Source of the DNA: Phyllobates terribilis | Lineage: Eukaryota | Direction of reading: 5' to 3' | Assembly (NCBI RefSeq): GCF_046119375.1 | Contig: NW_027362761.1 | Coordinates: forward strand, 494,202,001-494,266,000 | DNA length: 64,000 bases | In this document: positions 1,672 to 60,673 of the stretch, in pieces | How the letters are laid out: each line of letters begins with the position of its first letter | Position numbering within the stretch: position 1 is the stretch's first letter | Program-made: the position numbers and the translations under genes | The notes under the pieces: model-generated | Database searches by the model: none | The model's input: the letters and a program-made list of their open reading frames with translations, nothing else | What the model was told of the DNA's origin: nothing

Positions 1672-4600
1672 TTGGCACTATATAAAAATAAAGATTATTA
1701 TTAGTTTATTGAATGGAAAACTTGTTAGGGAATATATACAAGAGATAACAGGCACACAGACTTATGAACGTATCCTTTACAACTTAAAGCATTTTCCACA
1801 CAGTTTCCTTCCTTCTTTTCTCTATTGTTCTCTATCTTCACTTTTCCTCTTTACTGTCTCTATAGGTCCTTTGTATTCGCTGTTCCTCACTACTTCACCA
1901 CAACCCAGCTTAACACTACAGTCCTGCTTAGGAAGAGTCATGTAATCGTCCCGTGGTTCCGCATCTTCTTTCCCCTAATGGTGCCAGTATGACTGGTACT
2001 TATCTTCTCTAGTAATGATGCACTGGAACTTCCATCCGGGGCATTTTACTTATCTCACATACTCTTTGAGTTGTAAACTCTGGACCTTGCAACTAGGTGT
2101 CCACTCTCATGACCTGTCTCTGGTAGTTCACACTGTCTATCAGTCACTTCTGCTCTGGATCTCGCTATCTTTTCCTTTCGGTCTCATCTCAGTTTAGGGA
2201 CACCCCAGACTGTGGCACTGCTCACATTTTACCTTAGGTCCTCTTTTTATGCACTCTGGGCCCTGTCTGACTCACTACCAGGAAATTGTCACTTTCCCTT
2301 CAACATAGCCCCTCCCACTATGAGTTAGTCCCAAACATTAACTCTATCCATCCCTGCTGTCAAACTACTCTCATTATCAATATTACTAACATCTTTAACG
2401 CACATCACAATTCACATTACATCACATAACATTAAACTTGTTTCTTCAAGCAAGAACGTGGGCAACATATCCATCTCCTTACACGGGACTTTTTTTTTTT
2501 CTATAGGGCTAATAACTTACTGGCAGATATTTGATATCTACCTGCCTGTGCTGCTTTGCAATGATATTTTCTGGTTCAGTTCGGTCATGCATCACTCCTG
2601 ACTGTGATTCTCCTGTTCCCTGTGACGGCACATCAACAGAGCAGGTTCTTCTATTCTGCTGCTTCCTTTGACCTCACGTCGACAGAGCACCTCTTTCTTC
2701 ACCGCTCTGCTTTGTCAACGGGGTGTCACCACCAACGTCATACTGATTGACAGTCGGCTCCCCGCCGCCTAACTGTGGGAAGCTGGCTGTGAATCAGCAT
2801 GACTTTAGCAGTGGATGTGTGACGCCTCTACTCGTAAAGCCCCTGTTTTACCCTGGGTGTTGGGGCACTCTGTGTCGGGCCCTGTGATGGAGAGGTGGGA
2901 TGCAGCCGTGGCCCGGGCCCGACCCGCGCTCAGGGCCGTCACATTAGAAAGAGATGGTATGGGCTTGTCCGGGTTGAGTGGCTGATTAACAACTACGCCA
3001 CCTGTGGTGCCTGATGAAGGGTCACCAACGCCGCTGCAGTCCGCTGAGGCATGGTGTTATGGCGGCCAAAGTTCTTACTACTCCCCACAGGCGGAGCAGG
3101 ACCTCAGGGCAGAGGGACAGGATGGAGGGGGTAGTAGTTGAGGAGAACGGGCTCCGCGTCTCGCGGTGTGGCGCAGAAATAACAGTCCGGAGGCCATAGG
3201 GGTGAACTTCCAAGGCTTTACTCACTTCAGAGATGGCAGAAGGAAGGCGACTCCCTGCTCCCCGCGGAGTCCTGCGGTCTCCAGGGACAGGGGTCCGACA
3301 ACCTCCGAGTAAGTCCAGCATTCAGTCGCGGCCCTACAGCAGAGTGTTCCTGAACTACAGACCGAATCCTTTCCTGTCCGTGTGTGTGCAAATAGGCCAG
3401 GTCTCCCTCTGAGCTCCTCTCAGAACTAGGGCACGGGTGGCAATTCCTCTCCATCCGATACCCGGTGGGATCCTCTGGGCCTAACCGGGCTTTCCCGACC
3501 AGGACATAGAGTAGCAAGGTCGGGTGTCGGGGGCCGGTACCCCTCTTGCAGCCGGAATCCCTCTGAATAGATCAGCTAGGCGAGGACAGGTGGCGTACAC
3601 TGCTCCGTCTGCATCCTCCCCGGGACCCATTTGCTGTGGAGCCACACTCTAGAGCTCCCGGGCCTTCTTGCTCATGGTCCTCGACCGGGCTGAGATAGTC
3701 CTTATCTCCCACCTGCCTATCATCCCAAGGCCTAGGGACTAGGGTCGTGTCTCCATCCCCTGCAGGACCACACAGGATCCACTTTCAGGGTAGGAGATAC
3801 GTTCTGACACCAGTCAGGGCACAGCCGAAAGACCCATCAAAAGACCAAGATCAAAGATGGCTTTACATTAAATAATAGATTAGAAGCGTAACTAATTTGT
3901 AAGTCCTCCACCCTCACCCACTAACTGGTTCCTACCACTTTGTGTTCCCCAGTCTCCCTGTAACCAGGGGAGCAGCACCTAGTGCATACTAGCCCCCCTT
4001 GGATGCAAGAGATTTGGTCACGACTATCACACTGACCTTACCTCAGAGGAGGAACACCACACTCCATTGAAGATAGTGCAGCATCCCTGTGGCGGTCGAA
4101 CCCTCAGGGGCGCCACATTCCCCCCTGGTAAAACACAGCACGTCCGCGGGCTGCAAAAGAAGTAACACCCAGGAAATTTCTTTTTATAATAACAAGAAAA
4201 CTATCATCCCTTTATGGGAGGCACCATTTCTTAAACGTTGCATAACAGGATATACAGTATAAAAATCTAAAAGTATAAAATTACAAAAGTGCTAGCATTT
4301 TTCCAGAGACATTAGTGCAAACAGACAGATAAAAGTGCAAGGACGCAGAGTCAGTTCAGAAGTGCGAGGGACCTGCCCTAAACCCTCAACGTGGGCCCTG
4401 GGATGGCTGCAGGGCATGAAGATCCCGAGTTGGACCTTCCGGAGAGCCACCCTGACAGGTTTTTCTTCTGATGTCTTGAGGTAGAAATATCCGCGGTTTT
4501 TGTATAAAACCAATGTGGAGCACCTAAAGAGATGCAAACTATTTACAATTTAAAGAGTCTGTCTGCTGCCAGTCCGCAGGGATACGTGTCTCTAGAAGCC

Positions 4601-4676
4601 GGTTAAGAAATTAAGCAATAATAGAAAAAGTCAACATTTAAACTTGTAAACAAAACAGAAACAGCCGGAGGCTGCT

Positions 4677-5765
4677 TTACACCTCGGGCTCCCTCCTTGG
4701 AAAGGGCTCATTCCTCCCGACGGAGGCTAGCCGGTCCCCTGAGGCTGAGTGCGGGGTGGCGTCGCTCCCGGACACTTTGTGCACGTCCAGGGCGTACCAC
4801 CCTCGCTCCCCCTGGTGGCGAGAGAAAGTCACTGTATCGCCCGGGAAGAGGTTCCGACCAGGGTGTCCCTTCTTGAGGCGCGGCTCGACGTCCCGCCGGC
4901 TGACGAACACATCATCCTGGTAATGGGGACACCGGATGAACCCCCACCCCGCCTCATGGTGAAAACGGACGACTTTGCCTTCCAATCGGGGACTGGAACG
5001 GATGGCCTCCTCCTGACGGGCCCGGGATTTGGCAGCTTTGGCCCGTACCTCGAGGTGCTCGCAGCGCTGCTCCCGCTGACCCCGCTCCCGAGCGAGCTGG
5101 AAGATCTGGCCACTGCACCACTGGCTCCTCCTCCACGCTTGAGCCCGGGTCTCCCGGGGGAAGCCCATCAGGTCGCCACCCTGGTTTTCCCAGGCCCACT
5201 CCTCAGCCTCGGGCCAGGTTACTGTTGGTGCGGGTAGCGGGGTAAGAACAGGTTGCTGCGGGTCCTCCACGGACCAGTCCAGGTTGGAGCCGGTAGTTTC
5301 CTCCGCAGTTTCAGGCACCTCCGTGTCAGGGTTTGGGCGGCATCGCAGGTCCCCACCCATAGCTGCCGATTGCAGCTCTGGAGCTAACGCTTGCTCCCAG
5401 GAGACCGCGTGGGGAATTAGATACTCCGTCATGAGGTCCAGGATAGTCACGGTAGGCTCTGCAGCCGGGGCAGGGGTTGCACGCTCACCCGCCTCTAGGC
5501 TGCCCTCGACCTCTGTCACCGCGTCGACTTGTCCCGGGACCTCGACTCCTTGGCGGCGGTCCCGGATACGCAGCAGCATCTCCTCCTGCCACGCAGCCGT
5601 CGCCGCCTCCTGGGCCTCTCTTTGCTTTCTCAAGTGTCCCGGAGCTTCCTGCCGGAGAAATGCAAAATCTCCCGAGGTCAACACGCTGCCGCCTTCCTCT
5701 CTGCCGGGTGAAGGGCCTGAACCGGGTTCAGAAGATGCATGGACTTGCTCCCCAGAGGCGTCCAT
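4677..5765 (-). CDS. 362-aa protein: acidic/low-complexity N-terminal part, putative coiled coil, C-terminal cold-shock domain (aa ~260-331, nt ~4773-4988)
   Basis: Segment LEGKVVRFHHEAGWGFIRCPHYQDDVFVSRRDVE...LFPGDTVTFSRHQGERGWYALDVHKV aligns by eye with the CSD consensus (G.V.WF....GFGFI.......DVFVH...I......L..G..V.F....G..G..A..V). RNP1-like GWGFI and RNP2-like DVFVS are present. The ORF is uninterrupted. Confidence 0.85.
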   Translation of the reverse strand: MDASGEQVHASSEPGSGPSPGREEGGSVLTSGDFAFLRQEAPGHLRKQREAQEAATAAWQEEMLLRIRDRRQGVEVPGQVDAVTEVEGSLEAGERATPAPAAEPTVTILDLMTEYLIPHAVSWEQALAPELQSAAMGGDLRCRPNPDTEVPETAEETTGSNLDWSVEDPQQPVLTPLPAPTVTWPEAEEWAWENQGGDLMGFPRETRAQAWRRSQWCSGQIFQLARERGQREQRCEHLEVRAKAAKSRARQEEAIRSSPRLEGKVVRFHHEAGWGFIRCPHYQDDVFVSRRDVEPRLKKGHPGRNLFPGDTVTFSRHQGERGWYALDVHKVSGSDATPHSASGDRLASVGRNEPFPRREPEV

Positions 5766-6125
5766 GTCTGCCTCTGTTGATTGCCAAGCTCCGACTGCAA
5801 TGGCCGCACCTTGTTGCTTTTCTTCTTCCTCCTCTTTCGGGGCGGTTCCTGGGCGGAATGCTGACCGGCCAACCTTCGTTCAGCCCATCCAGTTTGACGG
5901 GCATTACCCCGCGGACAGTCTCTGATGGAAGGGGCCGTCCACATTTTTGGCGCCAAGCGGGAGCCCAGTCCACGATGGGAGGCGTTCAAAGACAGTCTTT
6001 TTACAGCACTATGGCGTCTGTACTTCTTGGGCGGGCGCCATTTTAAGTGTAAAACAACAGTTCAAGGTGTAAGGCACACAGTACCCGGTAGCAATGGGTA
6101 ATTCTTCCTTTGCTGCGGGCACGAG

Positions 6126-6143
6126 ATCCTGCCGACTACGCCA
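6126..6143 (-). other. Primer-binding site, tRNA-Ser (AGA/TGA type), element A
   Basis: Minus strand TGGCGTAGTCGGCAGGAT is complementary to the vertebrate tRNA-Ser 3' end ...ATCCTGCCGACTACG-CCA (tRNA sequence recalled, not searched). 3-nt spacer to the LTR. Confidence 0.88.
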
Positions 6144-7952
6144 GGTTGTGACGCCTCTACTCGTAAAGCCCGTGTTTTACCCTGGGTGTTGGGGGACTCT
6201 GTGTCGGGCCCTGTGATGGAGAGGTGGGATGCAGCCGTGGCCCGGGCCCGACCCGTGCTCAGGGCCATCACATTAGAAAGAGATGTTATGGGCTTGTCCG
6301 GGTTGAGTGGCTGATTAACGACTACGCCACCTGTGGTGCCTGGTGAAGGGTCACCAGCGCCGCTGCAGTCCGCTGAGGCATGATGTTATGGCGGCCAAAG
6401 TTCTTACTACTCCCCACAGGCGGAGCAGGACCTCAGGGCAGAGGGACAGGATGGAGGGGGTAGTAGTTGAGGAGTACGGGCTCCGCGTCTCGCGGTGTGG
6501 CGCAGAAATAACAGTCCGGAGGCCATAGGGGTGAACTTCCAAGGCTTTACTCACTTCAGAGATGGCAGAAGGAAGGTGACTCCCTGCTCCCCGCGGAGTC
6601 CTGCGGTCACCAGGGACGGGGGTCCGACAACCTCTGAGTAAGTCCAGCATTCAGTCGCGGCCCTACAGCAGAGTGTTCCTGAACTACAGACCGAATCCTT
6701 TCCTGTCCATGTGTGTGCAAATAGGCCGGGTCTCCCTCTGAGCTCCTCTCAGAACTAGGGCACGGGTGGCAATTCCTCTCCATCCGATACCTGGTGGGAT
6801 CCTCTGGGCCTAACTGGGCTTTCCCGACCAGGACATAGAGTAGCAAGGTCGGGTGTCGGGGGCCGGTACCCCTCTTGCAACCGGAATCCCTCTGAATAGA
6901 TCAGCTAGGCGAGGACAGGTGGCGTACACCGCTCCGTCTGCATCTACCCCGGGACCCATTTGCTGTGGAGCCACACTCTAGAGCTCCAGGGCCTTCTTGC
7001 TCATGGTCCTCGACCGGGCTGAGATAGTCCTTATCTCCCGCCTGCCCATCATCCCAAGGCCTAGAGACTAGGACCGTGTCTCCATCCCCTGCAGGCCCAC
7101 ACAGGATCCACTTTCAGGGTAGGAGATACGTTCTGACACCAGTCAGGGCACAGCCGAAAGACCCATCAAAAGACCAAGATCAAAGATGGCTTTACATTAA
7201 ATAATAGATTAGAAGCGTAACTAATTTGTAAGTCCTCCACCCTCACCCACTAACTGGTTCCTACCACTTTGTGTTCCCCAGTCTCCCTGTAACCTGGGGA
7301 GCAGCACCTAGTGCATACTAGCCCCCTCTGGTGGAGAAGTGTGGTGTTGGATGCAAGAGGTTGGGTCACGACTATCACACTGGCCTTACCTCAGAGGAGG
7401 AACACCACACTCCATTGAAGAAGTGCAGCATCCCTGTGGCGGTCGAACCCTCAGGGGCGCCACAGATGCACTGTCGACAACAGAGCAGAAAAGAAAGAGA
7501 GTAAGCTGCTCGATCGACGTGAGGTCAAAGGAAGCAGGATAATGGCACATGAGCCTGGAGAGATTGTAACAGGCAGAACAGACAAGTAGTTAGCAACTAC
7601 CTGCTTGTAAGCTCTTAGCCATATAGGAAAATAAAACAGTCCCAGATATGCTGGCTTTGCAGCATCTTGCTGACATCACTGTCAAGCACAGAGCTATGAT
7701 GCCTGTAATACAGCAGGTGATGGCTGAGGACACTGATCGGCTGCAGTGGTCACAAGGTAACAGGAGTATCTGCATTGCATCAGCTGGAAAAGAAGTAGTG
7801 AGCACTTTTTTTTCCTGTACTATTTTCAGCTGTTTTTTAGGTTTTTCTTTTTTCTGTTTTGGAAACTGATAATCCCTTCTTAACTGCTTTAGGCAACTGG
7901 AAGTGTTCATATTAACCCTTTCAGTAGTACTAATAATAATATGTAAAGCTAC

Positions 7953-8440: not shown

Positions 8441-9426
8441 TGTCGTGCCCAGGGGATGCGGACAACTCGGTACCCGGGCCTTTACCTGGTTTGGGGATGT
8501 CACGGTGGTCGGCTCCCAGGCCCGTAGCCTGGGGTCACTCTTGAAAAAGGGGATTGTAACTTGGATAGAAAAATAAAAATAAAGTAAATAGTTTGTGACG
8601 CCACCTGTGGTACCTGGTAAGGTTTACCAGATCTGCTGCAGACCTCCGGGGGGGTGTTGGGATGTCAGCTGAGGTGTTTCTGCTCCCCACAGGTGGAGTG
8701 GGCCCCAGGGGCAGTGTGGAGTTTGATGGTGGGTGGTGATGCTGGGGCTTGTAGTGCAGGCGGGATGGCGCAGCAGGAGTAACTGACAGAGACAGGGGAT
8801 TCGCTTCAATACCTTTACCAATGCGGATGTCAGGTACGTTCCAGGGTACTCAGTAGGATGGGTGCACTTCAGGACTTCTCCCCAGTGAGCGGGTATAAGG
8901 CCTCCTGGTCCGTGTCTGCCTCTCTGTATGCTCCTGGCCAGCCTGCAACTGGGCCTAGCTTATGTGTCGTGCTGTTCCTTCACCTGTCGCTCGGTAGTAG
9001 GACCTTCAGGTCAGCCAGGGACTTGTAGTCCTCCTGGAATGCCGGTGATCCCTACTGGGTATAAAGGACCCTGTAGGCGCGGACCCGGTGTCCGGTTTGT
9101 ATATCGGGGTGAGCCTTTGATACTCCTCTGCCCCCTCAACTCCTCTCTCCTTTCTCCTCTTGCCTTCGGCCACACTCGGGGCCCTCAAAACGGCAGCAGA
9201 CGTGCTGCGTCTTCGCTGCTCTCAGCGTAAGCACGCTCTCTCAACTACTAACTCTGACTGAACTGAACTGCCTGGCTCCACCCTCCATATATATATCCCT
9301 AACGGGCTCCCTCTGGTGGTGTGAGGTGGAAGGGTGGAGGTGTTTGTATGTAACGAGGGCCTCTTGTGGAGAAGTCCGTCCATGCACCCTGGGTCCTGTG
9401 GTACCTGTGAACAGCAGGGTGCCACA
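8441..9426 (-). mobile_element. Diverged solo LTR related to the autonomous Gypsy at 29072
   Basis: The first ~200 bp align to 29072 onward (CCCAGGGGATG...ACTCGGTACC...GTGACGCCACCTGTGG). Ends GGTGCCACA. TSD is not clean (TTAT/TTGG). Confidence 0.75.
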
Positions 9427-9772
9427 TTGGTGCAGACTGCTGGACTAAAACTCCGGCAAGTCAAGTCTGCAAGTTGTGAACATGACCTGCTCCGTGTGCA
9501 GCACATGAGTGTAGGAGCTGCCTGTTATTGACATGCACTAGCCTGGTCCATACATCAGACCAGATTAGCACATGGTGCAAATTTTTTTCACACTGATAAT
9601 TGGTCCATGGGAAAAATTGATGATCAAAGACAAACAGGTTATTATTGCATCAGCATGCCATACATTGAGCACATGGACAGAACACTGACCTAAAATGTGG
9701 CTTTCTGAATGAGCCCTAATAGAGTGCTCAGAGAGTCCATTTTGGCTGCTATCACCAATATACTTTTATTAA

Positions 9773-18492: not shown

Positions 18493-19308
18493 TAATGGAA
18501 AAAAATATTTTCCTAGTTAATATCAGCGAGAACAAAATGACCGCCATACACAACACAGTCCACTATATCAACACCAATAATACCACATACAAAAGGGACA
18601 AATATCGCCACACCATGACTAGATCACATATTACCACCACATAGTGACCGAATAACACCACATACAAGGAACAAATACGGCCACACCATGACCAGACCGT
18701 ATATTACCACACCAACATGACCAAATACTACAATACTGATCATGAATACAAAACACAATACTAACAACACTGTTATTACCACCAGCGACATTATACACAG
18801 GAGCTCTGTATATAGTGTCAGTGTACAGGTAACACAGTGATCACCAGTGACATTATACACAGGAGCTCTGTATATAGTGTATAGGTAATACAGTGATCAT
18901 CAGTGACATACACAGGAGCTCTGTATATACTATATACACACGTGGTCAAAATTGTTGGTACCCCTCGTTTAATGAAAAAAAAAAACACAATGGTCACAGA
19001 AAAAACTTGAATCTGACAAAAGTAATAATAAATTAAAAATGTATGAAAATGAACAAATGAAACTCAGACATTGCTTTTCAGTCCTGCTTCCAAAGAATTT
19101 AAAAAAAAAATGAAACTCATGAAATAGGCCTGGACAGAAATGATGGTACCCCTGAAAATAATGTGACAAAAGGAACATGTTAAATCAAGTTGTGTCCACT
19201 AATTAACATCACAGGTGTCTACAATCATGTAACCAGTCAGTGGGCCTGTATATAGGGCTACAGATACTCACTGTGCTGTTTGGTGACATGGTGTGTACCA
19301 CACTCAAC

Positions 19309-20316
19309 ATGGACCAGAGGAAGCAAAGGAAAGAGTTGTCTCAGGAGATTAGAAAGAAAATTATAGACATGCATGTTAAAGGTAAAGGTTATAAGACCAT
19401 CTCCAAGCAGCTTGATGTTCCTTTGACTACAGTTGCCCATATTATTCAGAAATTTAAGATCCATGGGACTGTAGCAAATCTCCCTGGACGTGGCCGCAGG
19501 AGGAAAATTGATAACAAATCAAAGAGACGGATAATACAAATGGTAACAAAAGAGCCCAGGAAAACTTCTAAAGAGATTAAAGGTGAACTTCAAGCTCAAG
19601 GAACATCAGTGTCAGATCGCACCATCCGTCGTTGTTTGAACCAAAGTGGACTTCATGGGAGACGACCAAGGAGAACACCATTGTTGAAAAAAAATCATAA
19701 AAAAGCCAGACTGGAATTTGCCAAACTACATGTTGACAAGCCACAAAGCTTGTGGGAGAATGTCCCATGGACAGATGAGACAAAAATGGAAATTTTTGGC
19801 AAGGCACATCAGCTCTATGTTCACAGATGGAAAATGAAGCATATCAAGAAAAGAACACTGTCCCTATTGTGAAACATGGAGGAGGCTCTTATGTTCTGGG
19901 GCTGCTTTGCTGCATCTGGCACAGGGTGTCTTGAATCTGTGCAGGGTACAATGAAATCTGAAGACTATCAAGGGATTCTAGAGATAAATGTACTGCCCAG
20001 TGTCAGGAAGCTTGGTCTTAGTCACAGGTCATGGGTCTTGCAACAGGATAATGACCCAAAACACACAGCTAAAAACACCCAAGAATGGCTAAGAGGAAAA
20101 CATTGGACTATTCTGAAGTGGCATTCTATGAGCCCTGACCTAAATCCTATTGAGCATCTTTGGAAAGAGCTGGAACATGACGTCTGGAAAAGGCAACTTT
20201 CACACACAAGACAACTGGAGCAGTTTGCTCATGAGGAGTGGGCCAAAATACCTGTTGAGAGGTGCAGAAGTCTCATTGACAGTTACAAGAATCATTTGAT
20301 TGCAGTGATTGCCTGA
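19309..20316 (+). pseudogene. Tc1 DD34E transposase, frameshifted at ~19830-19890
   Basis: Paired-like HTH (ELSQEIRKKII...GYKTISKQL), GRRRK, WTDETK, QQDNDPKH and [11 protein letters not shown] motifs split over two ORFs. Confidence 0.92.
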
Positions 20317-23894: not shown

Positions 23895-24026
23895 NNNNNN
23901 NNNNNNNNNNNNNNNNNNNNNNNNNNNNNNNNNNNNNNNNNNNNNNNNNNNNNNNNNNNNNNNNNNNNNNNNNNNNNNNNNNNNNNNNNNNNNNNNNNNN
24001 NNNNNNNNNNNNNNNNNNNNNNNNNN
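23895..24026. other. Assembly gap (132 N)
   Basis: Run of n characters. Confidence 1.
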
Positions 24027-25371: not shown

Positions 25372-26343
25372 TGTGACACCCCAGGGGTCTGGTTGCCACA
25401 GTGATAGAGATATTATGTCTGAGAGCAGGTGGGAGGTCCTTTGGTCAGGGATCCTGTGCATGCCACACCTCCTGCCCAGTCTTGGGAGGGGAAGAACTTC
25501 CCCTGTATAAACCCGGGGCTGAGGCAGGGTGAGTCAGACAAGGAGAGTGGAGAAGAGAAGCAGCATAGGAAACAGCAGAGTTACAAGGAGTCAGGGGCTG
25601 GCAGCTACAGAGCTCGCCCTGACTAAGAAGATTCTTTACCGGACCCGGAGTCCGAGGCTGTGGGGACTAACTCCTACCCAGCAGCAGAATCCGTCGGGCA
25701 GGGGATTTCAGGTCCTCTGGCCCAGAAGCCCGAAGGCACGGTCACACGCGTGGGACCAGCACCGCCATCGTGGAGCGGAAGCCACTAGAAGGCCCCGAGT
25801 CACCGGCCATACGGGTGAGCACCACACGGTACACTCAGGGACGTGGGCTACTTACATCAGCTTCTAGCAAGGTAGCCAGAAGAGTACAGTCAGTTTGGGA
25901 GGCCTACAACTACGCCTGGCCAGGGGAGATCCCATCTGCTCAAAGACTGACCAGGCCCCGTTTGCTAGCAAGTACTCCGGGAGGGTCTGTCGTTGTTACC
26001 AGTAAAGACCCTGAACTACACCGTACCGTCTCTGAGTGGTTCCTGCTACCCCCATCATCCACGTCGGCTGCCCTGAGGCCATACCCCTCCCGTTGGGGGT
26101 TATACTATCACGCTGCACAATCCTACCACCGGCCTCAGCGGTCTGCCCTGCAGCAGCAGCTTCCCGGCTGCACTCAACGGGTGGCGTAGTCATCAACTAT
26201 TTACTACTAATAGACTGCCGTCTAGTTTGACTCCCTGGGCACGGACCGGGTCACCGCCACGAGATTGCAACCCTCCACGGATCCGGCTCCGGGTAAGCTC
26301 CCGCGTGCGCACCGCAGCGCGACACAGGCCCAGGGGCGCGTCA
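25372..26343 (+). mobile_element. Solo LTR, diverged member of the element B LTR family
   Basis: TGTGACACC...GGGGCGCGTCA with TSD CACA. TATAAA ~25506. AGTAAAGACCCTGAAC and CTCAACGGGTGGCGTAGTC...CCCTGGGCACGGACCGGGTCACCGCCAC match the reverse complement of the 53624 LTR. Confidence 0.88.
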
Positions 26344-35872: not shown

Positions 35873-36236
35873 TCTGGCGCCCCCCTAGTTAACCGTGGCC
35901 TACCTTCGTAGTTTTTCTTCGGGTAGGCCGCAGCTCCTCAGGTGACGATCGTCTTCAGGACCTTGCGTCGCTTGCGTCCTTCATCAGAGCGTTCAGAGAC
36001 GCTCCTTACAGGACTTGGCGCTTCCTAGTTTGACGTCAAGGCGTGGGGCGTGTCCGGGGCTTCACGCTCTTTTGCAGGTACGCCCCTCAGTTTCCCGCGG
36101 TTACGCCCTTATTCTCGCTCGGCGGCCCAACAATGGCGGCAATCTTCACCACAGTTAAAACACACAGTTTCTGATTAAAGGCGCACAGTACCCGGTGGCA
36201 ACGGGCAAAACACGGCGTCGTTGCAGCGGGCACGCT

Positions 36237-36254
36237 ATCCTGTTCGTGACGCCA
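36237..36254 (-). other. Primer-binding site, tRNA-Ser(CGA type), autonomous Gypsy
   Basis: Minus strand TGGCGTCACGAACAGGAT is complementary to the tRNA-Ser(CGA) 3' end ...ATCCTGTTCGTGACG-CCA (recalled). 8-nt spacer to the LTR. Confidence 0.85.
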
Positions 36255-39420: not shown

Positions 39421-39626
39421 CAGCCATTTGTAGTGAGCGTGGAAGATATTGTCCTCCATTTAAAATGGGCAAGGAGCGTGGCAAAGGACGGGGAACTGAA
39501 CGTGATGGCGATGGTGCATGCCGAGGCCGAGGCTGTAGGCAAGATGAAATTGTGCCACAACAAACACCCACATCTTCTCGCCCGACCTTCCTGTCCTAAT
39601 TCTTAGGGGACCGCAGCACACCACTA

Positions 39627-42600
39627 TTGAACCCAGAGCAGTGTCAAAATGTTGTTGGTTGGATAGCGGATAATGCTTCCAGTCACTTAGCCACCACCAC
39701 CACCACCCTGTCTTCCACACGGTCAAGTCTTAGTAGCCGTGAGTCTGGACTGCATATTCCTCACCCTGATCCTCCTTCCTCCCACCATTCCGAGTGCCCG
39801 GAGACAACTGATCCCACACTTGGACACTCTGAAGAGCTGTTCACTTTTCCATTTATAGATTCGGGCTTCTCGCCCGGTCCACTTGAAGCAGGGCAAGAGG
39901 AGATCGCATGTAGCAATGCCCAAATATTTGAGCAGCCACGGTCACACAAAGGCGACGGTGGGAAAGTGTCACAAGAGTTGGACGATGATGAGACACAATT
40001 GCCAGAAAGTCAGGAGGAGGACCAGGGTGCGGAAGTGCAAGACGAGGTGGTGGATGATATAGTAACTGACCCAACCTGGCAGGAGGACATGCAGAGCGAG
40101 GACAGCAGTATACAGGGGGAGGGAGGCAGAGCACCCCAACAGGCAGGAAGAAGCAGTGTGGTGGCCGCAGACAGAAAGCAGGCAACCGTTCCCCGTAACA
40201 CCAACACGAAGGAAGTTGCCAGTACAACTGTTAGGTCTTCCCGAGTCTGGTTGTTTTTTAAGGACTCTGCCGATAACCCCAAAAAGGTCATTTGCACCAC
40301 CTGCCAGGCCAGCATCAGCAGGGGTGGCAAAACTAGCAGCCTGACCACCACCAGCATGATCAGGCACATGGCAGCAAAGCACCCGACTTTGTGGGCCGAA
40401 CCCCAGGGTCCAGGAACAATGTCTGCGGGTGGCACCATTGCTTCTTCCACTGTTGTGCATGCAAGCCAATCCCCTGTCCATGGTGCATGCGAAGATGCCT
40501 CCTGCCCTGCACCTGTCGTTGCACACTCTCAAGTAGCAGCATGAGGAAGCATGTCCACGTCCTTGTCCCAGTGCAGCGTTCAGTTGTCCATACCCCAGTC
40601 CTTGGAACGCAAGTGCAAATACGCAGCCAACGCCCCACAGGCCACACTACTAAATTCCCACATTTCACGACTGCTTGTGCTCAAAATGTTGCCTTTTAGG
40701 CTCGTGGAGATGGAAGCATTCCGCAACCTGATGGCGGAGTCCATTCCTTGGTACTTGTTCCCCTGCCGCCACTATTTCTCCCGGTGTGCCATCCCCGCAT
40801 TACACAAGCACGTGTCCCAAAACATTAGCCATGCCCTCAACAATGCCGTTACCGGGAAAATCCACCTAACCACAGACACGTGGACAAGTGCTTGTGGGCA
40901 GGGATGGTACATCTCGCTGACGGCACACTGGGTTAACATAGTGGAAGCTGTAACCCAGTTGGACCTTGGCATGGAACACGTCCTCCCGACGCCAAGGATT
41001 GCGGGCCCTACGTCAATCAGGGTTGCCCCCCAGTCTACAGATCCTGCACCTCATCCTCCTCCTCCTCTTCAGCCTCCATCTCTGAAATGACCACATCAGT
41101 CACAAGCTGGAAGCACTGCAGCACTGCCTCAGCCAAGCGGCAACAGGCTGTGCTGAAGCTAATATGCTTAGGTGAAAAAACGATCAATGCTGAAGAGTTG
41201 TGGACAGCTCTGAGAGAGCAGGCAGATCTGTGGCTCACACCGCTGAACCTACAGCCAGGCATGGTCGTGTGTTACAATGGCCGGAACCTGGTGGCGGCTC
41301 TGAGGCAAGGCGAGCTCACACACGTACCATGCCGGGCCCATGTGCTTAACCTCGTGGTTCAGCGGTTTCTCAAATCCTAACCGTAGCTTCCGGATCTGCT
41401 TGTTAAAGTACGCTGCCTGTGTTCCCATTTTAGAAAGTCACCTACAGCTTCCGCCGCCCTTGCCGTGTTTAAGCAGCGTTTGCAGCTTCCGGCTCACAGA
41501 CTGGTGTGTGATGTCCCCACATGTTGGAACTCTACACTGCAGATGTTGGGAAGGATTTGTGAGCAGAAGAGGGCAGTTGTTGAGTACCAGCATCAACAAG
41601 GCCGTCGGTATTCAGTTCAGACTCCACACATAAGACCTCAGGAGTGGACAAGGATGTCAGACATATGTACCATCCTCCAAAACTTTGAGAACTCCACCAA
41701 GATGGTGAGCGGCGATGACGCCATAATTAGCGTCACCATCCCGCTTCTCTGTCTTCTGAAATGCTCTCTCCTCACAATCAAAGAGAATGCATTGCAGGCA
41801 GAGGACAATGAGATGGAGCAAGGAACCATACAGGGTGATTACACACAGCCCAGCCTCATCTCATCCCAACGTGGATTGGGTGACAAAGAGGAGGAGGAGG
41901 AAGAAGAACAGGAGCTAGTTTCATGCGCTATAGACGGTACTACCTGCACAACTGTCAGACCGTCTGTTCAGCGTGGATGGCCAGAGGACAGAGAGGAGGA
42001 GGAGGAGAGCATCGTCAGTCAGACTCTTGGTGAGGACACGGAAGTCTTGCCTGTTAGCAGTCTGGCACGCATGGCTGAGTTTATGTTATGCTGCCTTTCC
42101 CATGACCCTCGCGTTCTAAAAATTTTGGGTGACAGTCCTTACTGGTTGGTGACACACGCTATAAGGAGAACTTTACATCTCTTATTCCTGAGGCGGACCG
42201 GTCTACAAAAATGGGGCAGTACTAGAAGGCCCTTGTTGCGGAACTATTAAAAAAATTCCCATCTGAAAACGCTGGCGGCAGAGGTCACAGTTCGTTGGAC
42301 AACCAAGGACTACAGGCGAGAGAGACATAACTTCAATCCAGCAGAGGCAGGGGAACACTGTCTAAGTTCTGGGAGAATTTTCTCAGCCCCTCCCATCGCA
42401 CAGGCCCTGAGGCACGAGGTACTCTCACAAGGAGTGCAAAGCTGGGGAAGATGCTGAGGGAGTACCTTGCCAACTGTACCAACGTCCTCCTTGATTCCTC
42501 TGTGCCTTATAATTATTGGGTACCCAAGCTGGAATGAACTGTCTCTCTACGCCTTGGAGGTCCTGGCCTGCCCTGCTGCCAACGTTTTATCAGAGCGGGT

Positions 42601-44781: not shown

Positions 44782-45916
44782 TGTGGCGCCCCTGAGGGTT
44801 CGACCACCACAGGGATGCTGCACTTCTTTAATGGAGTGTAGTGTTCCTCCTCTGAGGTAAGAACAGCGTTGTGGTTGTGGTCCTTGTAGTTTAGTTCTTC
44901 GACGGTCTTGGTTAGTCAAATTGCCTGGCTGTCATGTACTGTGATCTCCTACCCTGAAAGTGGATCCTGTGTGGGCCTGCAGAGGATGAGGATACAGCCC
45001 TCGTACCCTGGCCTTGGGACGACGGGCAGGTTGCAGACGAGGAATGTCTCAACCTGGTCAAGGACCACAACCAAGAAGGCCCGGAGCTTAGGAGTGTAGC
45101 TCCACAGCAAATGGATCCCGGGGAGGATGCAGATGGAGCGGCGTACGCCACCTGTCCTCACCACCTGATATATTCAGAGGGAGTCCGGCTGCAAGAGGGG
45201 TACCGGCCCCCGACACCCGACCTTGCTACTCTATGTCCTGGTCAGGAAAGCCCGGTAGGCCCTGAGGATCCCACCGGGTATCGGAAGGAGCGGAGCTGCC
45301 ACCCGTGCCCTTGTTCTGAGAGGAGCTCAGAGGGAGACCCGGCCTATTCACACACACAGACAGGAGAGGATACGGTCTGTAGTTCAGGAACACTCTGGTG
45401 CGGGGTCCCGACTGAATGCTGGACTTGCTTGGAGGTTGTCGGACCCCCGTCCCTGGTGACCGCAGGACTGCGCGGGGAGCAGGGAGTCGCCTTCCTACTG
45501 CCATCTCTAATGTGAGTAAAGCCTTGGAAGTTCACCCCTATGGCCTCCGGACTGTTTATTCTGCGCTACACCCCACGACGCAGCACACGGTCTCCTCTAC
45601 TACTACCCCCTCCATCCGGTCTCTCTGCCCTGAGGCCGTGCTCCGTCTGTGGGGAGTAGTAACAACGACGGCTGCCCTAACACCAGGCCTCAGCGGACTG
45701 CGGCAGTGCTGGTGGCCTTCACCAGGTGCCACAGGTGGCGTAGTCGGAATCAGCCACTCAACCCGGATAAGCCCACACCATCCGTTTTAATGTGACGGCC
45801 CTGAGCATGGGTCGGGTCCGGGCCACGGCTGCACCCCATCTCTCCATCACAGGACCCGACTCCGAGTCCCCCATCTCCCTGGGTAAAGAAAAGGGCTTCC
45901 GAGAAGAGGCGTCACA
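44782..45916 (+). mobile_element. Solo LTR of the element A family
   Basis: TGTGGCGCCCCTGAGGGTTCGACC...GGCGTCACA aligns to the reverse complement of the element A LTR. TSD AATG. Confidence 0.92.
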
Positions 45917-48047: not shown

Positions 48048-48076
48048 TACATCCTTCACAAGTATTGACATACCTA

Positions 48077-52917: not shown

Positions 52918-55518
52918 GGATGGGAACAATATTAAAGGATGGGGATATTATTACAAGATGGGCAACATTATTATAGGATGGATACAGTATTACAGGATGG
53001 GATAGTGTTACAGCATGGGGGATGTTATTACTAGCTGGGGGACATTTTTATAGGAAAGGGAACATTATTACAGCAAGGGGGACATTATTACAGGATGGGG
53101 GACATTATTACAGGGGTTTGAAATCAAAGTAAACACAAAAAGTACACATTTAGTATTGCTGAGTCTGGAATGACCCAATCTATAAAACCATACTGTCCAT
53201 AACCCATACGATGAAGAAAAAACACTACAAAAATGTTCATTATACTTACACACAAAAAAATGAACAAAAAGTAATCAAAAAGTTGTATAAAAAAAAATGG
53301 TATCACTGAAAATGTCATCTCATCCCGCAAAAAATGCTGCCTGTCAATTTTTTTTTATATATGTGGCCCATTTACCCCGCCGAGTTTGAAGCCTCTTTTG
53401 TAGTCCCTTCATCTTTCCAGAAATTTCTACCTCACCATTTGTCAAGGTCAATAAACTACCTAAAAGTTCTTCCACTGCATCTTGCTGGATTGTCTACATG
53501 CAGCTGGTCAGACTAGTGAAGAGCGGATAGCAAGTACCTAACATTGCCTGTACAGAGATTTGTGCTCACATCCGTTGGACACATCTCACCAACATAAATA
53601 GGTAGAAAAATAAGCTGTGTATGTGACGCGCCCCCTGGGCCATATTCAGGGGATACCCGGAGCCGGATCTGGATAGGGGTAGTAGTCCTTGTGGCGGTGA
53701 CCCGGTCCGTGCCCAGGGTGTCAAACTAAGTGGCAGTCTATGGCAGTAGATGTTAACTTGGATGTCGACTACGCCACCCGTTGAGTGCGGCTTTGCAGCC
53801 GCCGCTGCAGAACAGTCCGCTGAGGCCAGTGGTATGGGTGCAGCGATGATGTTATAACCCCCAACGGGAGGGGTATGGCCTCAGGGCAGCAGGGATAGAT
53901 GATGGGGGTGATGGTGGTACACGAGCGCAACAAAGACAACTCGGAGTCTTGGTGGTGCAGTTCAGGGTCTTTACTCACGGTTACTCGGTTACTGCTCCAG
54001 GCCACCTCTCCAGAGGTGGCCGCCTGTGTCGCGCTGTGCTCACCAGGTGAGGGGCTCGGTTAACTCCCAGGTCTTTCTGGAGTGCTTTGCAGGACCCCCT
54101 TTATGTCCCCTGTCTCTGGTCTTCAACCCCACTAGTGACCACGCTTATGTCCAGCTGCCTCGGACCTTCTTGGTGGGCAAACGTTGGCCTGCGTTTCCCA
54201 GGTCCTATGTGGTGCCTTTCTAGCGGGTGTGGTGAGGGGCTGCTCCACATGTAATGTCGCAGCCTCCGGTTCTTAGTTGAGGGTAGTTTCTCTCCTCCAC
54301 TAATTTGGGATCCGGTTCCCATCTTCTTGACCTGACCCCCCTACTCAGGTAGCGGCGGGCGTGTGGTGGCTACCAGCCAGTCCACACCCCTGGGGTCCCC
54401 TCTGTCCTTTCTGGAGCCCAGTCTGCTCCCCTTCCTCCTTCTTCCCTCCTCCAGGCTCAGGCCTCCTGACAGGGCCTGCCTGTGGAGCAGAGCCCATAAA
54501 GCAGCTCTGCTCCCTGTCTTCTCCTCTCTCAACTCACTCCCTTTCCAAGATGGTGCCTCCCTTTATACTCCTGTACAGAGTGCACCCAGGATCTACTTCC
54601 CCCACGCACACACTACCGGGTTCCCTTCTCTAGGTGTTCCCTCCCCCCACTCCAGCCAGGGACATGCTCACTCGTGCCTGCATAACTAATGGGAGCACCG
54701 TCAAGCTGTCCCCCGGAAATGTGGTGTAGTGCATGTGGGTGTTAGGGTCCTGAGCCACACTCCATCCTTACCTGGAAGTGAGATATCGCACATCTGGGTG
54801 AGATGCAATACCTCTGTAGCAACCGAACCCTCGGGGTGCTACATTCCCCCCTGGCAAAACCCAGCACGTCCGCGGGCTGGAACTAAGCAAAAGACAGGGT
54901 ATACATTAGAACATGCAAATTTTTCATAAACAACAAGTATAACAGGTATCAACATTCAGTTTCCCTTTATGGGAACGGCTCTCTCTTAAACGGTATAAGT
55001 GCATATGTACTGTTCTGGAACTCTTTTTCATAGTAACACATTCTAGCATATAAATTTTTCATATAAAACATTTCTAGCAGCAGATCCACGAAGAAGTCTC
55101 TTTATAACAGGTCACAGTTATTCTGCAACCATGTGTCCATTTTCCTAAAACAGGGAGACGTAACCAGGTAGGGGTCTGTCCTGCCCCGAGTCCTTAACAG
55201 TCTTTTAGTCCATCCTGGGTTACGCTCCACTAACTGTACAAAGGATTCCCGGTAAATCCACCAAGGACTCCTATACATTACTAGAAACACATAATTATTT
55301 ACAGGATATGGCCGCTCTCAGTCCTCGGCCAGGTAGGGGTGGCTGTTCTCAGTCCCCAGCCAGTTAGAGGGAAAAAGGGGTGGCTGTTCTCAGTCCCCAG
55401 CCAGGTAGGGGGTAAGGGAAACAGTTCTCTTTCTGTCCCAACGGGGACCACACTCTTAGTGGAAACAGTCCCACAACAGTCCTTATACCCGGTCGGGTAA
55501 CTATTTACATCTCCTCTT

Positions 55519-55938
55519 TTACCGTTTACGATTAACGGTGTGCTCCACACGCTCCTTTCTCTTTCTCAGGTTCAGACCCATCCGGGCCCTCTTGGTACTC
55601 GGGGTCTGAGTGGTACTGTTAATGACGCCCGGGGTCAGGGGGTGCGACTTTGGGCCTGGGCGCGGGCTGGTGGTGGCAGTGCCCAGGTCTGGAGGGCTCG
55701 GCTGCAGGGCTTGTTGCGGGGTCCGGAGCAGGTCTGCGTCTGCAGCGCCCGGGATCGGCGGCTCCACCGGGTGGCCCGGGAGCAGGCTGACGCTGGCAGC
55801 GTCCGGGACAGGGAGACTCCTCTTACCTGCTCCCGCGACCGCTCCTGCGTCACGCGTCTTCTCCTGGTGCTGGTCGGGGCCCGCGACGGCTGGGGCGCTG
55901 CCGATGCTGGGCAGCTTAGTCTGCTGCCGGTCCGCCAT
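55519..55938 (-). CDS. 139-aa Pro/Ala-rich ORF with basic C-terminus in the gag position of element B (copy 1)
   Basis: Good Kozak context AAGATGGCG, position analogous to the gag start, intact in both copies. No recognisable domain. Confidence 0.4.
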   Translation of the reverse strand: MADRQQTKLPSIGSAPAVAGPDQHQEKTRDAGAVAGAGKRSLPVPDAASVSLLPGHPVEPPIPGAADADLLRTPQQALQPSPPDLGTATTSPRPGPKSHPLTPGVINSTTQTPSTKRARMGLNLRKRKERVEHTVNRKR

Positions 55939-58297
55939 CTTGCTGTCCGTTCCTGGTGTCCTCCTCCCCCCTGGTGGACCGTGGCCTACCTGGCGATGAT
56001 CCTCTTCCGTAGGCCGCGGCTCCGCAGTTGATCATCAGGGTCGAGGACCTTCTGTCGCGCTCCAGTGACGTCGGCGTCTGCTGGGCTCCTTCCAGGACCT
56101 TACGCAACGTCCGGACGTGAGGCGGGGCTTCAGTTCTCGCGCACTTTCGGAGTCCACGCACCTCTTCTTCCCGCGCGGCGTCCTCAAGATGGCGCCCAAT
56201 GGCGGGAAAACTCCACAGATGGCGGGAAGAAGGCTGAAGATGGCGCCGGATGGCGGGAATCTTCACGGATGGCGGGAAGAAGGCTGAAGATGGCGCCGGA
56301 TGGCAGGAAAACTTCACGGATGGTAAGTTTTAAAAGTCTCTTTTTCAGGCACGCAGTACCCGGTGGTTGCGGGCACGAAATCCTGCCGACTACGCCAAAA
56401 GTTGACGCGCCCCCTGGGCCATATTCAGGGGATACCCGGAGCCGGATCTGGATAGGGGTAGTAGTCCTTGTGGCGGTGACCCGGTCCGTGCCCAGGGTGT
56501 CAAACTAAGTGGCAGTCTATGGCAGTAGATGTTAACTTGGATGTCGACTACGCCACCCGTTGAGTGCGGCTTTGCAGCCGCCGCTGCAGAACAGTCCGCT
56601 GAGGCCAGTGGTATGGGTGCAGCGATGATGTTATAACCCCCAACGGGAGGGGTATGGCCTCAGGGCAGCAGGGATAGATGATGGGGGTGATGGTGGTACA
56701 CGAGCGCAACAAAGACAACTCGGAGTCTTGGTGGTGCAGTTCAGGGTCTTTACTCACGGTTACTCGGTTACTGCTCCAGGCCACCGCTGCAGAGGTGGCC
56801 GCCTGTGTCGCGCTGTGCTCACCAGGTGAGGGGCTCGGTTAACTCCCAGGTCTTTCTGGAGTGCTTTGCAGGACCCCCTTTATGTCCCCTGTCTCTGGTC
56901 TTCAACCCCACTAGTGACCACGCTTATGTCCAGCTGCCTCGGACCTTCTTGGTGGGCAAACGTTGGCCTGCGTTTCCCAGGTCCTATGTGGTGCCTTTCT
57001 AGCGGGTGTGGTGAGGGGCTGCTCCACATGTAATGTCGCAGCCTCCGGTTCTTAGTTGAGGGTAGTTTCTCTCCTCCACTAATTTGGGATCCGGTTCCCA
57101 TCTTCTTGACCTGACCCCCCTACTCAGGTAGCGGCGGGCGTGTGGTGGCTACCAGCCAGTCCACACCCCTGGCGTCCCCTCTGTCCTTTCTGGAGCCCAG
57201 TCTGCTCCCCTTCCTCCTTCTTCCCTCCTCCAGGCTCAGGCCTCCTGACAGGGCCTGCCTGTGGAGCAGAGCCCATAAAGCAGCTCTGCTCCCTGTCTTC
57301 TCCTCTCTCAACTCACTCCCTTTCCAAGATGGTGCCTCCCTTTATACTCCTGTACAGAGTGCACCCAGGATCTACTTCCCCCACGCACACACTACCGGGT
57401 TCCCTTCTCTAGGTGTTCCCTCCCCCCACTCCAGCCAGGGACATGCTCACTCGTGCCTGCATAACTAATGGGAGCACCGTCAAGCTGTCCCCCGGAAATG
57501 TGGTGTAGTGCATGTGGGTGTTAGGGTCCTGAGCCACACTCCATCCTTACCTGGAAGTGAGATATCGCACATCTGGGTGAGATGCAATACCTCTGTAGCA
57601 ACCGAACCCTCGGGGTGCTACATTCCCCCCTGGCAAAACCCAGCACGTCCGCGGGCTGGAACTGAGCAAAAGACAGGGTATACATTAGAACATGCAAATT
57701 TTTCATAAACAACAAGTATAACAGGTATCAACATTCAGTTTCCCTTTATGGGAACGGCTCTCTCTTAAACGGTATAAGTGCATATGTACTGTTCTGGAAC
57801 TCTTTTTCATAGTAACACATTCTAGCATATAAATTTTTCATATAAAACATTTCTAGCAGCAGATCCACGAAGAAGTCTCTTTATAACAGGTCACAGTTAT
57901 TCTGCAACCATGTGTCCATTTTCCTAAAACAGGGAGACGTAACCAGGTAGGGGTCTGTCCTGCCCCGAGTCCTTAACAGTCTTTTAGTCCATCCTGGGTT
58001 ACGCTTCACTAACTGTACAAAGGATTCCCGGTAAATCCACCAAGGACTCCTATACATTACTAGAAACACATAATTATTTACAGGATATGGCCGCTCTCAG
58101 TCCTCGGCCAGGTAGGGGTGGCTGTTCTCAGTCCCCAGCCAGTTAGAGGGAAAAAGGGGTGGCTGTTCTCAGTCCCCAGCCAGGTAGGGGGTAAGGGAAA
58201 CAGTTCTCTTTCTGTCCCAACGGGGACCACACTCTTAGTGGAAACAGTCCCACAACAGTCCTTATACCCGGTCGGGTAACTATTTACATCTCCTCTT

Positions 58298-58717
58298 TTA
58301 CCGTTTACGATTAACGGTGTGCTCCACACGCTCCTTTCTCTTTCTCAGGTTCAGACCCATCCGGGCCCTCTTGGTACTCGGGGTCTGAGTGGTACTGTTA
58401 ATGACGCCCGGGGTCAGGGGGTGCGACTTTGGGCCTGGGCGCGGGCTGGTGGTGGCAGTGCCCAGGTCTGGAGGGCTCGGCTGCAGGGCTTGTTGCGGGG
58501 TCCGGAGCAGGTCTGCGTCTGCAGCGCCCGGGATCGGCAGCTCCACCGGGTGGCCCGGGAGCAGGCTGACGCTGGCAGCGTCCGGGACAGGGAGACTCCT
58601 CTTACCTGCTCCCGCGACCGCTCCTGCGTCACGCGTCTTCTCCTGGTGCTGGTCGGGGCCCGCGACGGCTGGGGCGCTGCCGATGCTGGGCAGCTTAGTC
58701 TGCTGCCGGTCCGCCAT
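58298..58717 (-). CDS. 139-aa ORF of element B (copy 2)
   Basis: One amino-acid difference (P/L) from copy 1. Confidence 0.4.
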   Translation of the reverse strand: MADRQQTKLPSIGSAPAVAGPDQHQEKTRDAGAVAGAGKRSLPVPDAASVSLLPGHPVELPIPGAADADLLRTPQQALQPSPPDLGTATTSPRPGPKSHPLTPGVINSTTQTPSTKRARMGLNLRKRKERVEHTVNRKR

Positions 58718-60673
58718 CTTGCTGTCCGTTCCTGGTGTCCTCCTCCCCCCTGGTGGACCGTGGCCTACCTGGCGATGATCCTCTTCCGTAGGCCGCGGCT
58801 CCGCAGTTGATCATCAGGGTCGAGGACCTTCTGTCGCGCTCCAGTGACGTCGGCGTCTGCTGGGCTCCTTCCAGGACCTTACGCAACGTCCGGACGTGAG
58901 GCGGGGCTTCAGTTCTCGCGCACTTTCGGAGTCCACGCCCCTCTTCTTCCCGCGCGGCGTCCTCAAGATGGCGCCCAATGGCGGGAAAACTCCACAGATG
59001 GCGGGAAGAAGGCTGAAGATGGCGCCGGATGGCGGGAATCTTCACGGATGGCGGGAAGAAGGCTGAAGATGGCGCCGGATGGCAGGAAAACTTCACGGAT
59101 GGTAAGTTTTAAAAGTCTCTTTTTCAGGCACGCAGTACCCGGTGGTTGCGGGCACGAAATCCTGCCGACTACGCCAAAAGTTGACGCGCCCCCTGGGCCA
59201 TATTCAGGGGATACCCGGAGCCGGATCTGGATAGGGGTAGTAGTCCTTGTGGCGGTGACCCGGTCCGTGCCCAGGGTGTCAAACTAAGTGGCAGTCTATG
59301 GCAGTAGATGTTAACTTGGATGTCGACTACGCCACCCGTTGAGTGCGGCTTTGCAGCCGCCGCTGCAGAACAGTCCGCTGAGGCCGGTGGTATGGGTGCA
59401 GCGATGATGTTATAACCCCCAACGGGAGGGGTATGGCCTCAGGGCAGCAGGGATAGATGATGGGCGTGATGGTGGTACACGAGCGCAACAAAGACAACTC
59501 GGAGTCTTGGTGGTGCAGTTCAGGGTCTTTACTCACGGTTACTCGGTTACTGCTCCAGGCCACCACTGCAGAGGTGGCCGCCTGTGTCGCGCTGTGCTCA
59601 CCAGGTGAGGGGCTCGGTTAACTCCCAGGTCTTTCTGGAGTGCTTTGCAGGACCCCCTTTATGTCCCCTGTCTCTGGTCTTCAACCCCACTAGTGACCAC
59701 GCTTATGTCCAGCTGCCTCGGACCTTCTTGGTGGGCAAACGTTGGCCTGCGTTTCCCAGGTCCTATGTGGTGCCTTTCTAGCGGGTGTGGTGAGGGGCTG
59801 CTCCACATGTAATGTCGCAGCCTCCGGTTCTTAGTTGAGGGTAGTTTCTCTCCTCCACTAATTTGGGATCCGGTTCCCATCTTCTTGACCTGACCCCCCT
59901 ACTCAGGTAGCGGCGGGCGTGTGGTGGCTACCAGCCAGTCCACACCCCTGGGGTCCCCTCTGTCCTTCCTGGAGCCCAGTCTGCTCCTCTTCCTCCTTCT
60001 TCCCTCCTCCAGGCTCAGGTCTCCTGACAGGGCCTGCCTGTGGAGCAGAGCCCATAAAGCAGCTCTGCTCCCTGTCTTCTCCTCTCTCAACTCACTCCCT
60101 TTCCAAGATGGTGCCTCCCTTTATACTCCTGTACAGAGTGCACCCAGGATCTACTTCCCCCACGCACACACTACCGGGTTCCCTTCTCTAGGTGTTCCCT
60201 CCCCCCACTCCAGCCAGGGACATGCTCACTCGTGCCTGCATAACTAATGGGAGCACCGTCAAGCTGTCCCCCGGAAATGTGGTGTAGTGCATGTGGGTGT
60301 TAGGGTCCTGAGCCACACTCCATCCTTACCTGGAAGTGAGATATCGCACATCTGGGTGAGATGCAATACCTCTGTAGCAACCGAACCCTCGGGGTGCTAC
60401 ATATGATCATAAAACTGGGGCACTTCTTATTTATTTGAGTAGGAGGTTCTTGGCTTGAAAGCATTACTTTACATGTTGGATTTCCAAAAGTGACAACCCC
60501 AAACAACATCTAGTAAAATTTTGTTAATGTGTTCTCCACAGGAACAACACGGCACAAGAGCAGGCGGACCAGTCACCACCTATTGGAGCGTATTGGACAT
60601 TTATGTGTGACATGTCATCTCTATGGATTTTATTTTGCTGGCAAACACAGCGAATGGGAGTCAGTAGTTTTAA

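Follow-up and report, generated by a model that had tools for sequence, protein, structure and literature searches.

The 64,000-nt stretch of the Phyllobates terribilis genome analysed here (the window; contig NW_027362761.1, positions 494,202,001 to 494,266,000) raises the question of how long terminal repeat (LTR) elements without gag-pol are copied, and what they might gain from a protein of their own. Two such elements, A (2818-7464) and B (53624-60401), lie on the minus strand together with a Ty3/Gypsy element, G (29072-37429), on the same strand. We consider it likely, if well short of certain, that A and B belong to one old gag/pol-less LTR lineage whose intact members code for a helix plus cold-shock domain (CSD) protein and which is copied by the enzymes of autonomous Gypsy elements. 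This reading draws on the observed structure of the elements, the absence of gag-pol, selection on the protein, shared primer binding sites (PBSs), polypurine tracts (PPTs), termini and target site duplications (TSDs), family-specific sequence blocks and matching ages. The family labels G1, G2a, G2b, A, S1, S2 and B are our own, with G belonging to G1, and L-numbers denote loci fetched from the 10.57-Gb host genome.

Signals shared by A, B and G

All three elements have the ends given in a preliminary description of the window and are flanked by 4-bp TSDs, which read GATG for A, TATG for B and CTCT (on the plus strand) for G. The LTRs of A measure 1318 nt (5', 6147-7464) and 1300 nt (3', 2818-4117), and those of G lie at 36263-37429 and 29072-30231. 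B keeps its outer ends but is internally a tandem of three LTRs within one TSD (5', 59182-60401; middle and shared within the tandem, 56403-57622; 3', 53624-54843), with a unit of 4.0 kb. Self-comparison of the window gave LTR-LTR identities of 95.9% for A (K 0.027), 96.2% for G (K 0.028) and 99.4-99.75% among the three LTRs of B. G has the TG...CA LTRs, PBS, PPT and TSD of a Ty3/Gypsy element, and its coding region (30787-35871) shows the Gypsy order of a PNMA-like gag with a CCHC knuckle followed by reverse transcriptase (RT), RNase H and integrase domains in Pfam, the protease domain being outside the scoring. This copy, proposed earlier to be autonomous, is broken by stops and frameshifts in both gag and pol and is not autonomous now. 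A and B lack gag-pol and retain LTRs, PBS, PPT and TSD, so that the proposed sharing of replication signals between gag-pol-less elements and the Gypsy clade stands.

The shared signals differ in how far they are the same. A common tRNA-Ser PBS had been described; the PBSs (6126-6143 in A, 36237-36254 in G, 59159-59176 in B) do all point to tRNA-Ser, but to two different genes, with those of A and B fitting the 3' end of a TGA-type and that of G the 3' end of a CGA-type gene. The A/B PBS has 69,769 exact matches in the genome and the G PBS 8,117 (controls 0 for both); 1 of 4 loci scanned for the G type was called as tRNA-Ser(CGA), and 10 loci for the A/B type included two Ser(TGA), one Ser(GGA) and one Ala. 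The post-PBS motif, two complementary arms that might form a stem (6079-6123 in A), and the PPT-proximal motif (4118-4156 in A, together with the PPT, in the form characteristic of the CSD lineage) can be found in each of the three elements, and AGTAAA occurs once per LTR, 348-405 nt from its 3' end. The trailer box likewise lies where it had been reported (4207-4237 in A, 30327-30356 in G, 54962-54992 and again 57741-57771 in B), at 90, 96 and 119 nt from the 3' LTR, respectively, and chance can be ruled out because its exact pattern has 4,240 genome matches compared to 0 for the reversed control. Among 30 loci with the box, 18 were of the gag/pol type, 9 of the CSD type and 3 without match (here and below, loci were taken from the genome as the first 30 matches on contig C1 or as best hits and thus non-randomly). 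The LTR bodies are indeed unalignable on the U3 side, where 850 nt gave scores of 22-26 for the A/G, B/G and A/B pairs against shuffled maxima of 27-32, but some 115 nt of U5 can be aligned among the three elements at 71-80% identity.

The cold-shock-domain protein of A and its relatives

The single open reading frame (ORF) of A (4677-5765, minus strand; 362 aa from the first Met) encodes a low-complexity N-terminal half, a W/DLMGF motif, a predicted 50-residue helix (4998-5147; H15-64, predicted local distance difference test 71-91 by block) and a Y-box-like CSD (4776-4982) that scores 32.3 bits for Pfam PF00313, above the cut-off of 27. In the predicted model of this module, the helix precedes a CSD-type beta-barrel, which matches solved CSDs in a fold search with template modelling scores (to the target) of up to 0.90. 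Among solved structures, family profiles hit YBX1/YBX2 best (E 2e-7 to 7e-5), and the domain shares with these proteins a similar loop length and the GxGFI and VFV motifs, whereas identity is about 30%, Trp and His are replaced, and the 50-residue helix before and about 30 residues after the CSD set it apart. A single-sequence search, on the other hand, places bacterial CspB ahead of YB-1, and bacterial Csp proteins also come first in the fold search, so that a Y-box descent is only one possible origin of the domain. Alignment to YB-1 further shows that the Trp preceding the first Phe and the His of VFVH are missing, so that binding may differ from that of YB-1. Matches in a viral fold library were generic CSDs.

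To what extent is this protein maintained? A first look with the CSD query yielded 36,436 candidates, which is not a copy number, and among the fetched loci 22 distinct open-frame copies (14 of A, 3 of S1, 5 of S2) share a 133-aa module without indels. Within groups, the ratio of nonsynonymous to synonymous rates (dN/dS) ranges over 0.11-0.20 in this module and 0.08-0.15 in the CSD. Synonymous differences from one group to another are saturated (pS 0.72-0.84) against nonsynonymous ones of 0.24-0.32 (pN), with CSDs 51-67% identical. The synonymous excess disappears in shifted and reverse frames, and the low-complexity N-terminal half of A also shows pN below pS. Copies were picked for open frames, a choice that removes stops but cannot create the contrast between synonymous and nonsynonymous changes. 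The protein of A is thus under strong purifying selection (dN/dS about 0.1-0.2). That the ORF would be neutral captured cargo finds some footing in the ORF of B, which is without clear selection, but is largely refuted for A by dN/dS of 0.08-0.2 throughout A, S1 and S2 and by the constrained N-terminal half; we give this explanation almost no credence beyond the vestige in B. The earlier image of a parasite with cargo does too little justice to the selection acting on the A protein.

All homologues of the A protein that turned up belong to poison frogs (Ranitomeya variabilis, R. imitator, Phyllobates terribilis and Anomaloglossus baeobatrachus); the Phyllobates protein and one genomic copy share 95.6% identity. 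In a 38-row tree, the Anomaloglossus and Ranitomeya proteins sit on long branches outside the copies of this genome, with a weakly supported root. A family-profile search of a large protein set returned only P0001, the ESM Atlas gave low-score leads only, and the Gag profile had no match among PDB sequences. Three sequencing runs, only guessed to be RNA, gave contigs on element A and are uninformative. Separately, about 47 matches to the CSD pattern lie within 1 Mb at C1:438859492-439879406 with recurring spacings of about 3.4, 5.4, 22 and 25 kb, which suggests that CSD elements form a large array there, tandem or segmental.

A and B could also be plain internal deletions of a rare, extinct or unsampled autonomous element with an extra CSD gene, similar to bird endogenous retroviruses (ERVs) that hold CSDs within otherwise retroviral genomes (PMC12287698, in its available part). 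Our sampling covers tens of loci among tens of thousands, and the search for longer proteins containing the CSD, which found none, is weak evidence; a 1354-aa frame with CSD was rejected as such a parent because it is a read-through of simple repeats. Yet none of 30 loci picked by the CSD-coding pattern has gag/pol within 1.5 kb, and none of 19 gag-pol loci has the CSD ORF inside the element; CSD matches do flank the gag-pol element at L227, where LTR positions show a nested insertion. At 30 loci with the A/B-type PPT motif, the CSD ORF was found upstream in 23, a B-like sequence in 2 and no match in 5, and RNase H or integrase in none. Furthermore, the synonymously saturated families A, S1 and S2 all have the same gag-less interior of 2.0-2.6 kb, and the ORF starts 0.4-0.8 kb past the PBS, at the expected position of gag. 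We therefore regard a deletion origin as improbable. Helper and satellite elements are frequently nested or adjoining (L227, L271, L016, L017). Selecting loci by exact PBS, which favours young copies, gave 14 autonomous G2 elements, 14 CSD elements, 1 B-like element and 1 locus without match for the PBS of B (n = 30), and 23 gag/pol elements, 6 CSD elements and 1 without match for the PBS of G (n = 30).

Probable helper families, shared blocks and the origin of B

The ORFs of A and B had been called unrelated, but the 139-aa ORF of B (58298-58717; second copy 55519-55938) is homologous to the N-terminal half of S1 proteins (55% over 62 aa, E 9e-13; DNA 68-76%), and the B relatives L118 and L132 retain the last CSD strand at the end of the ORF. 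Judging from these sequences, B is a CSD-deleted offshoot of A's lineage. Its ORF shows pS of 0.30-0.36 and pN of 0.26-0.39 against S1, 0.0082 and 0.0073, respectively, among close copies, and 9 synonymous and 10 nonsynonymous differences from L118, a weak hint only. The interior of B is a mosaic: positions 1-444 are a G2a leader (window 58738-59181, including the PBS; second copy 55959-56402), 473-696 are S1-like, 803-1110 are S2-like, and 1100-1270 match the 3' untranslated region (UTR) of G2a (a 170-nt trailer block, 57912-58082 and 55133-55303, 87-94% identical), followed by the trailer box and the PPT motif of the CSD lineage. The 5' LTR is composite as well, with a U3 start like that of CSD-lineage LTRs and a U5 like that of G2a (82%). 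Multi-LTR tandems such as that of B seem to recur in the CSD lineage (L070, L141/L142, L146/L147, C1:246415982-246421226).

The relatedness of these blocks points to more than one helper. G2 is a second autonomous group whose Gag is about 36% and whose RT about 70% identical to that of G. The B leader is 93-96% identical to G2a, compared to 95% between G2a copies and 86% between G2a and G2b, but only one 93-nt piece of it can be aligned with G (74%). A, in turn, has in common with G a 110-nt trailer block that had been overlooked (4366-4475 in A, 30461-30571 in G; 90%), the region of the box, at 92% across 49 nt, and a portion of U5, at 80%, while against three G2 copies its interior is common only over 30 nt around the PBS and its LTR over a U5 piece of at most 69 nt. 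LTR-LTR K values fall into an older wave of G1 (0.028-0.039, 4 pairs) and A (0.019-0.052, 8 pairs) and a younger wave of G2 (median 0.004, 8 pairs), S2 (0.0033, 9) and B (0.0042, 7), with pairs obtained from 3/10 fetched loci for G1, 7/9 for A, 1/9 for S1, 8/9 for G2, 9/10 for S2 and 7/11 for B. The comparison of LTR-LTR ages that had been proposed thus pairs A with G1 (K about 0.03) and B with G2 (about 0.004) instead of G, B being some five to ten times younger than G. In these small and biased samples, A and G1 as well as B and G2a share both family-specific cis sequence and age, so that a single Gypsy helping both elements no longer fits and at least two helper families, G1 for A and G2a for B, are likely from the sequence comparisons.

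If the blocks were shared simply through ancient descent and preserved because selection acts on RNA structure, they would attest to common ancestry without any present helper relation or exchange. Base-pairing of the 110-nt block is 96% across families, PBS, PPT and termini are clade-wide, and the block tree has few columns and weak support, all of which would suit such a view. However, the 440-nt leader of B is no farther from G2a than one G2a copy is from the next, B's relatives L118/L169 and L132 are without its 170-nt G2a block, and elements without Pol need a helper anyway. Across 56 copies of the 110-nt block, A-type sequences are 87% identical to G1 and 69% to S1, one autonomous copy groups with S1, and L085/L270 represent an autonomous G1 subfamily bearing the S1-type block. 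An approximately unbiased (AU) test on this block rejects the satellites as one clade (p-AU 0.00045; 52 rows, 33 of them satellite, after removal of 4 rows without demonstrated CSD-lineage ORF; quick tree of about 100 columns), with groups defined by ORF type but tested after a first tree had been seen. We consider pure inheritance very improbable.

What might these blocks do? The 110-nt block can fold into four helices with one pseudoknot nested in another, a candidate structure that G1, A, S1 and a single G2b copy (L152:7266-7383) have in their 3' UTR. Over 56 rows, 96.3% of cells pair compared to 30-50% in slid controls and 5 of 26 pairs change on both sides, but the structure was drawn from the same sequences as tested, 21 of the 25 double changes fall on one pair and go back to a single inherited event, and CpG decay could account for many of the one-sided G-U changes. 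Single-sequence folding z-scores are weak in a model without pseudoknots (A block -0.7, G block -0.3, B block -0.6). Rfam gave no match at gathering score in the window and one chance-level match in A's trailer, and the hammerhead ribozyme, a retrozyme hallmark, was not found. The post-PBS arms occur in 60/60 sampled copies by a loose pattern, with folding z about 0. Every LTR of the clade also has a second PBS-like site of 10-14 nt in U5, about 150-180 nt upstream of the PBS (6321-6330 and 2992-3001 in A, 36401-36414 in G, 59326-59335 in B). Its type agrees with the element's own PBS in 51/51 called cases among 60 loci (L090-L119, L170-L199), which reflects few switches because the loci are related; a literature search on bipartite PBSs turned up only Ty1/Ty3 reviews. 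Finally, a gag-proximal leader hairpin of G (35895-35931, folding z -2.6) is found in B (55981-56017, 58760-58796) but not in A, and was counted in 27/43 gag/pol records, 0/64 CSD-bearing records (including some double counts) and 21/25 CSD-deleted records.

Taken as a mechanism, helper Gag would package satellite RNA primed by tRNA-Ser, helper Pol would reverse-transcribe and integrate it, and template switching in mixed particles would let helper and satellite trade their leader, U5 and trailer blocks, with the consequence that satellite sub-lineages track the active helper. Such a scheme in trans has a precedent, since a yeast mini-Ty with terminal cis sequences alone is mobile once proteins are provided in trans, and Ty1 makes use of a pseudoknot (PMC4974528, in its available part). 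Several observations weigh against this picture. Beyond the non-random genome samples and the bias of exact-PBS samples to young copies, few LTR pairs underlie the ages of G1 and S1; the leader of A can be aligned with G over about 80 nt only (72%); and the PBS of A fits a tRNA-Ser type other than that of its inferred helper G1. The hairpin of CSD-deleted elements represents about two independent gains, with 20 of the 21 records from the B lineage and 4 records without it. B also spread despite having lost its CSD, and the CSD protein is thus not required for spread, given that B amplifies without it.

For the protein itself, Y-box proteins offer a possible model, as frog oocytes use them to store maternal mRNA. 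That a gene of a non-autonomous element stays under selection suggests that the element's own RNA profits from it, and the CSD protein, which may derive from a host Y-box gene, might mainly bind the RNA of its own element and stabilise it or steer it into helper particles, a proposal that we hold to be nearly an even call; B, having lost the domain, would carry the helper's leader hairpin and trailer block instead. YB-1, for comparison, supports HIV RNA metabolism and particle production (PMC6040738, in its available part). A mutualistic role is also conceivable, with the protein acting in trans on helper and satellite RNA alike (e.g., as a shield from decay or silencing) and B riding free on both. 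The gene is present in 0/19 sampled autonomous elements, yet CSD elements accompany both helper waves, CSD-less B amplified recently, and the G1 subfamily of L085/L270 carries an S1-type trailer block. A freely shared protein should, however, erode via deletion derivatives; that strong purifying selection is still seen in each of the three subfamilies is easier to reconcile with a benefit in cis and makes the mutualistic alternative unlikely, though less so than those discussed above. Extending the preferred reading, we tentatively envisage a satellite lineage that predates the divergence of two poison-frog families, captured one Y-box-type gene in place of gag-pol, uses its product as its own packaging or RNA-protection factor, hops between helpers by recombination of cis blocks including the double pseudoknot and the U5 tRNA-binding site, and makes up about half of the clade's young elements.

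The window also holds four solo or partial LTRs of the clade: a G2b-like (705-1670, minus strand) and a G-like one (8447-9428, minus), a solo LTR of G2a (25372-26343, plus; 97.7% to L156, TSD CACA) and one of family A (44782-45916, plus; 87%, TSD AATG). ORF fragments at 19207-20316, 26525-27073, 39600-42250 and 60990-61820 resemble Tc1 transposases, a transposase of the hAT type and a LINE RT. A stretch of 132 N at 23895-24026 lies in a simple-repeat array outside A, G and B.

A probable satellite lineage with its own protein

Partnerships of this kind have known counterparts. Du et al. (2010) reportedly described an autonomous-nonautonomous partnership of the soybean elements SARE and SNRE with LTR swapping. 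SNRE is likewise reported to be a non-autonomous LTR lineage that exchanges cis sequence with autonomous partners, whereas in the present case leader, U5 and trailer seem to be exchanged while U3 remains separate. The host here is moreover a vertebrate, and a host-like protein is under selection. Non-autonomous grass pararetroviruses have noncoding regulatory sequences homogenised by region-specific recombination (PMC5491270), the same kind of partnership in another element class and in plants, with no captured host domain mentioned in the available part of that paper. TRIMs, or miniature terminal-repeat retrotransposons, are also non-autonomous with PBS and PPT; the available part of PMC10886601 describes them as shorter than 1 kb, with tRNA- or 5S-derived LTRs in Helenus, Ajax and Cassandra, 4-bp TSDs in animal Helenus, switching of primers and helpers and no requirement for LTR homology to the helper. 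In comparison, A is 4.6 kb long with a selected ORF, the B unit has 4.0 kb, and neither has an Rfam match at gathering score that would point to a tRNA- or 5S-derived LTR.

Closest in content are 46 bird ERVs with captured CSDs, which stem from several captures at varied positions and are suggested to be adaptive by the authors (PMC12287698, as far as its available part goes). These are retroviruses, whereas the CSD protein described here is the only product of a lineage that likely depends on Gypsy elements; purifying selection on it was measured, its copies are very many, and homologues occur in several poison-frog genera. Sequence swapping between non-autonomous elements and their partners (reportedly in soybean, and in PMC5491270), TRIMs and CSD capture by bird ERVs (PMC12287698) are therefore already in print, at least in the parts available, and the pairing with two helpers, the origin of B, the exchange test and the candidate RNA elements are new here. 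A search of the open full-text literature, with Repbase, Dfam and subscription journals outside it, found no description of a CSD-coding non-autonomous LTR lineage.

The common view of non-autonomous LTR elements is that they are non-coding or decaying. Here, by contrast, a host-like, presumably RNA-binding protein is kept under strong selection, and one may ask which advantage a satellite draws from coding for it. The helper-derived blocks kept by the satellites are likely to mark RNA signals that act in cis in a vertebrate Gypsy clade. Among young elements with the PBS of B, the CSD type equals the autonomous type in share (14/30 each), and surveys that count only long Pol-bearing elements (such as PMC12822217, going by its available part) would overlook the share of CSD elements in the growth of poison-frog genomes.

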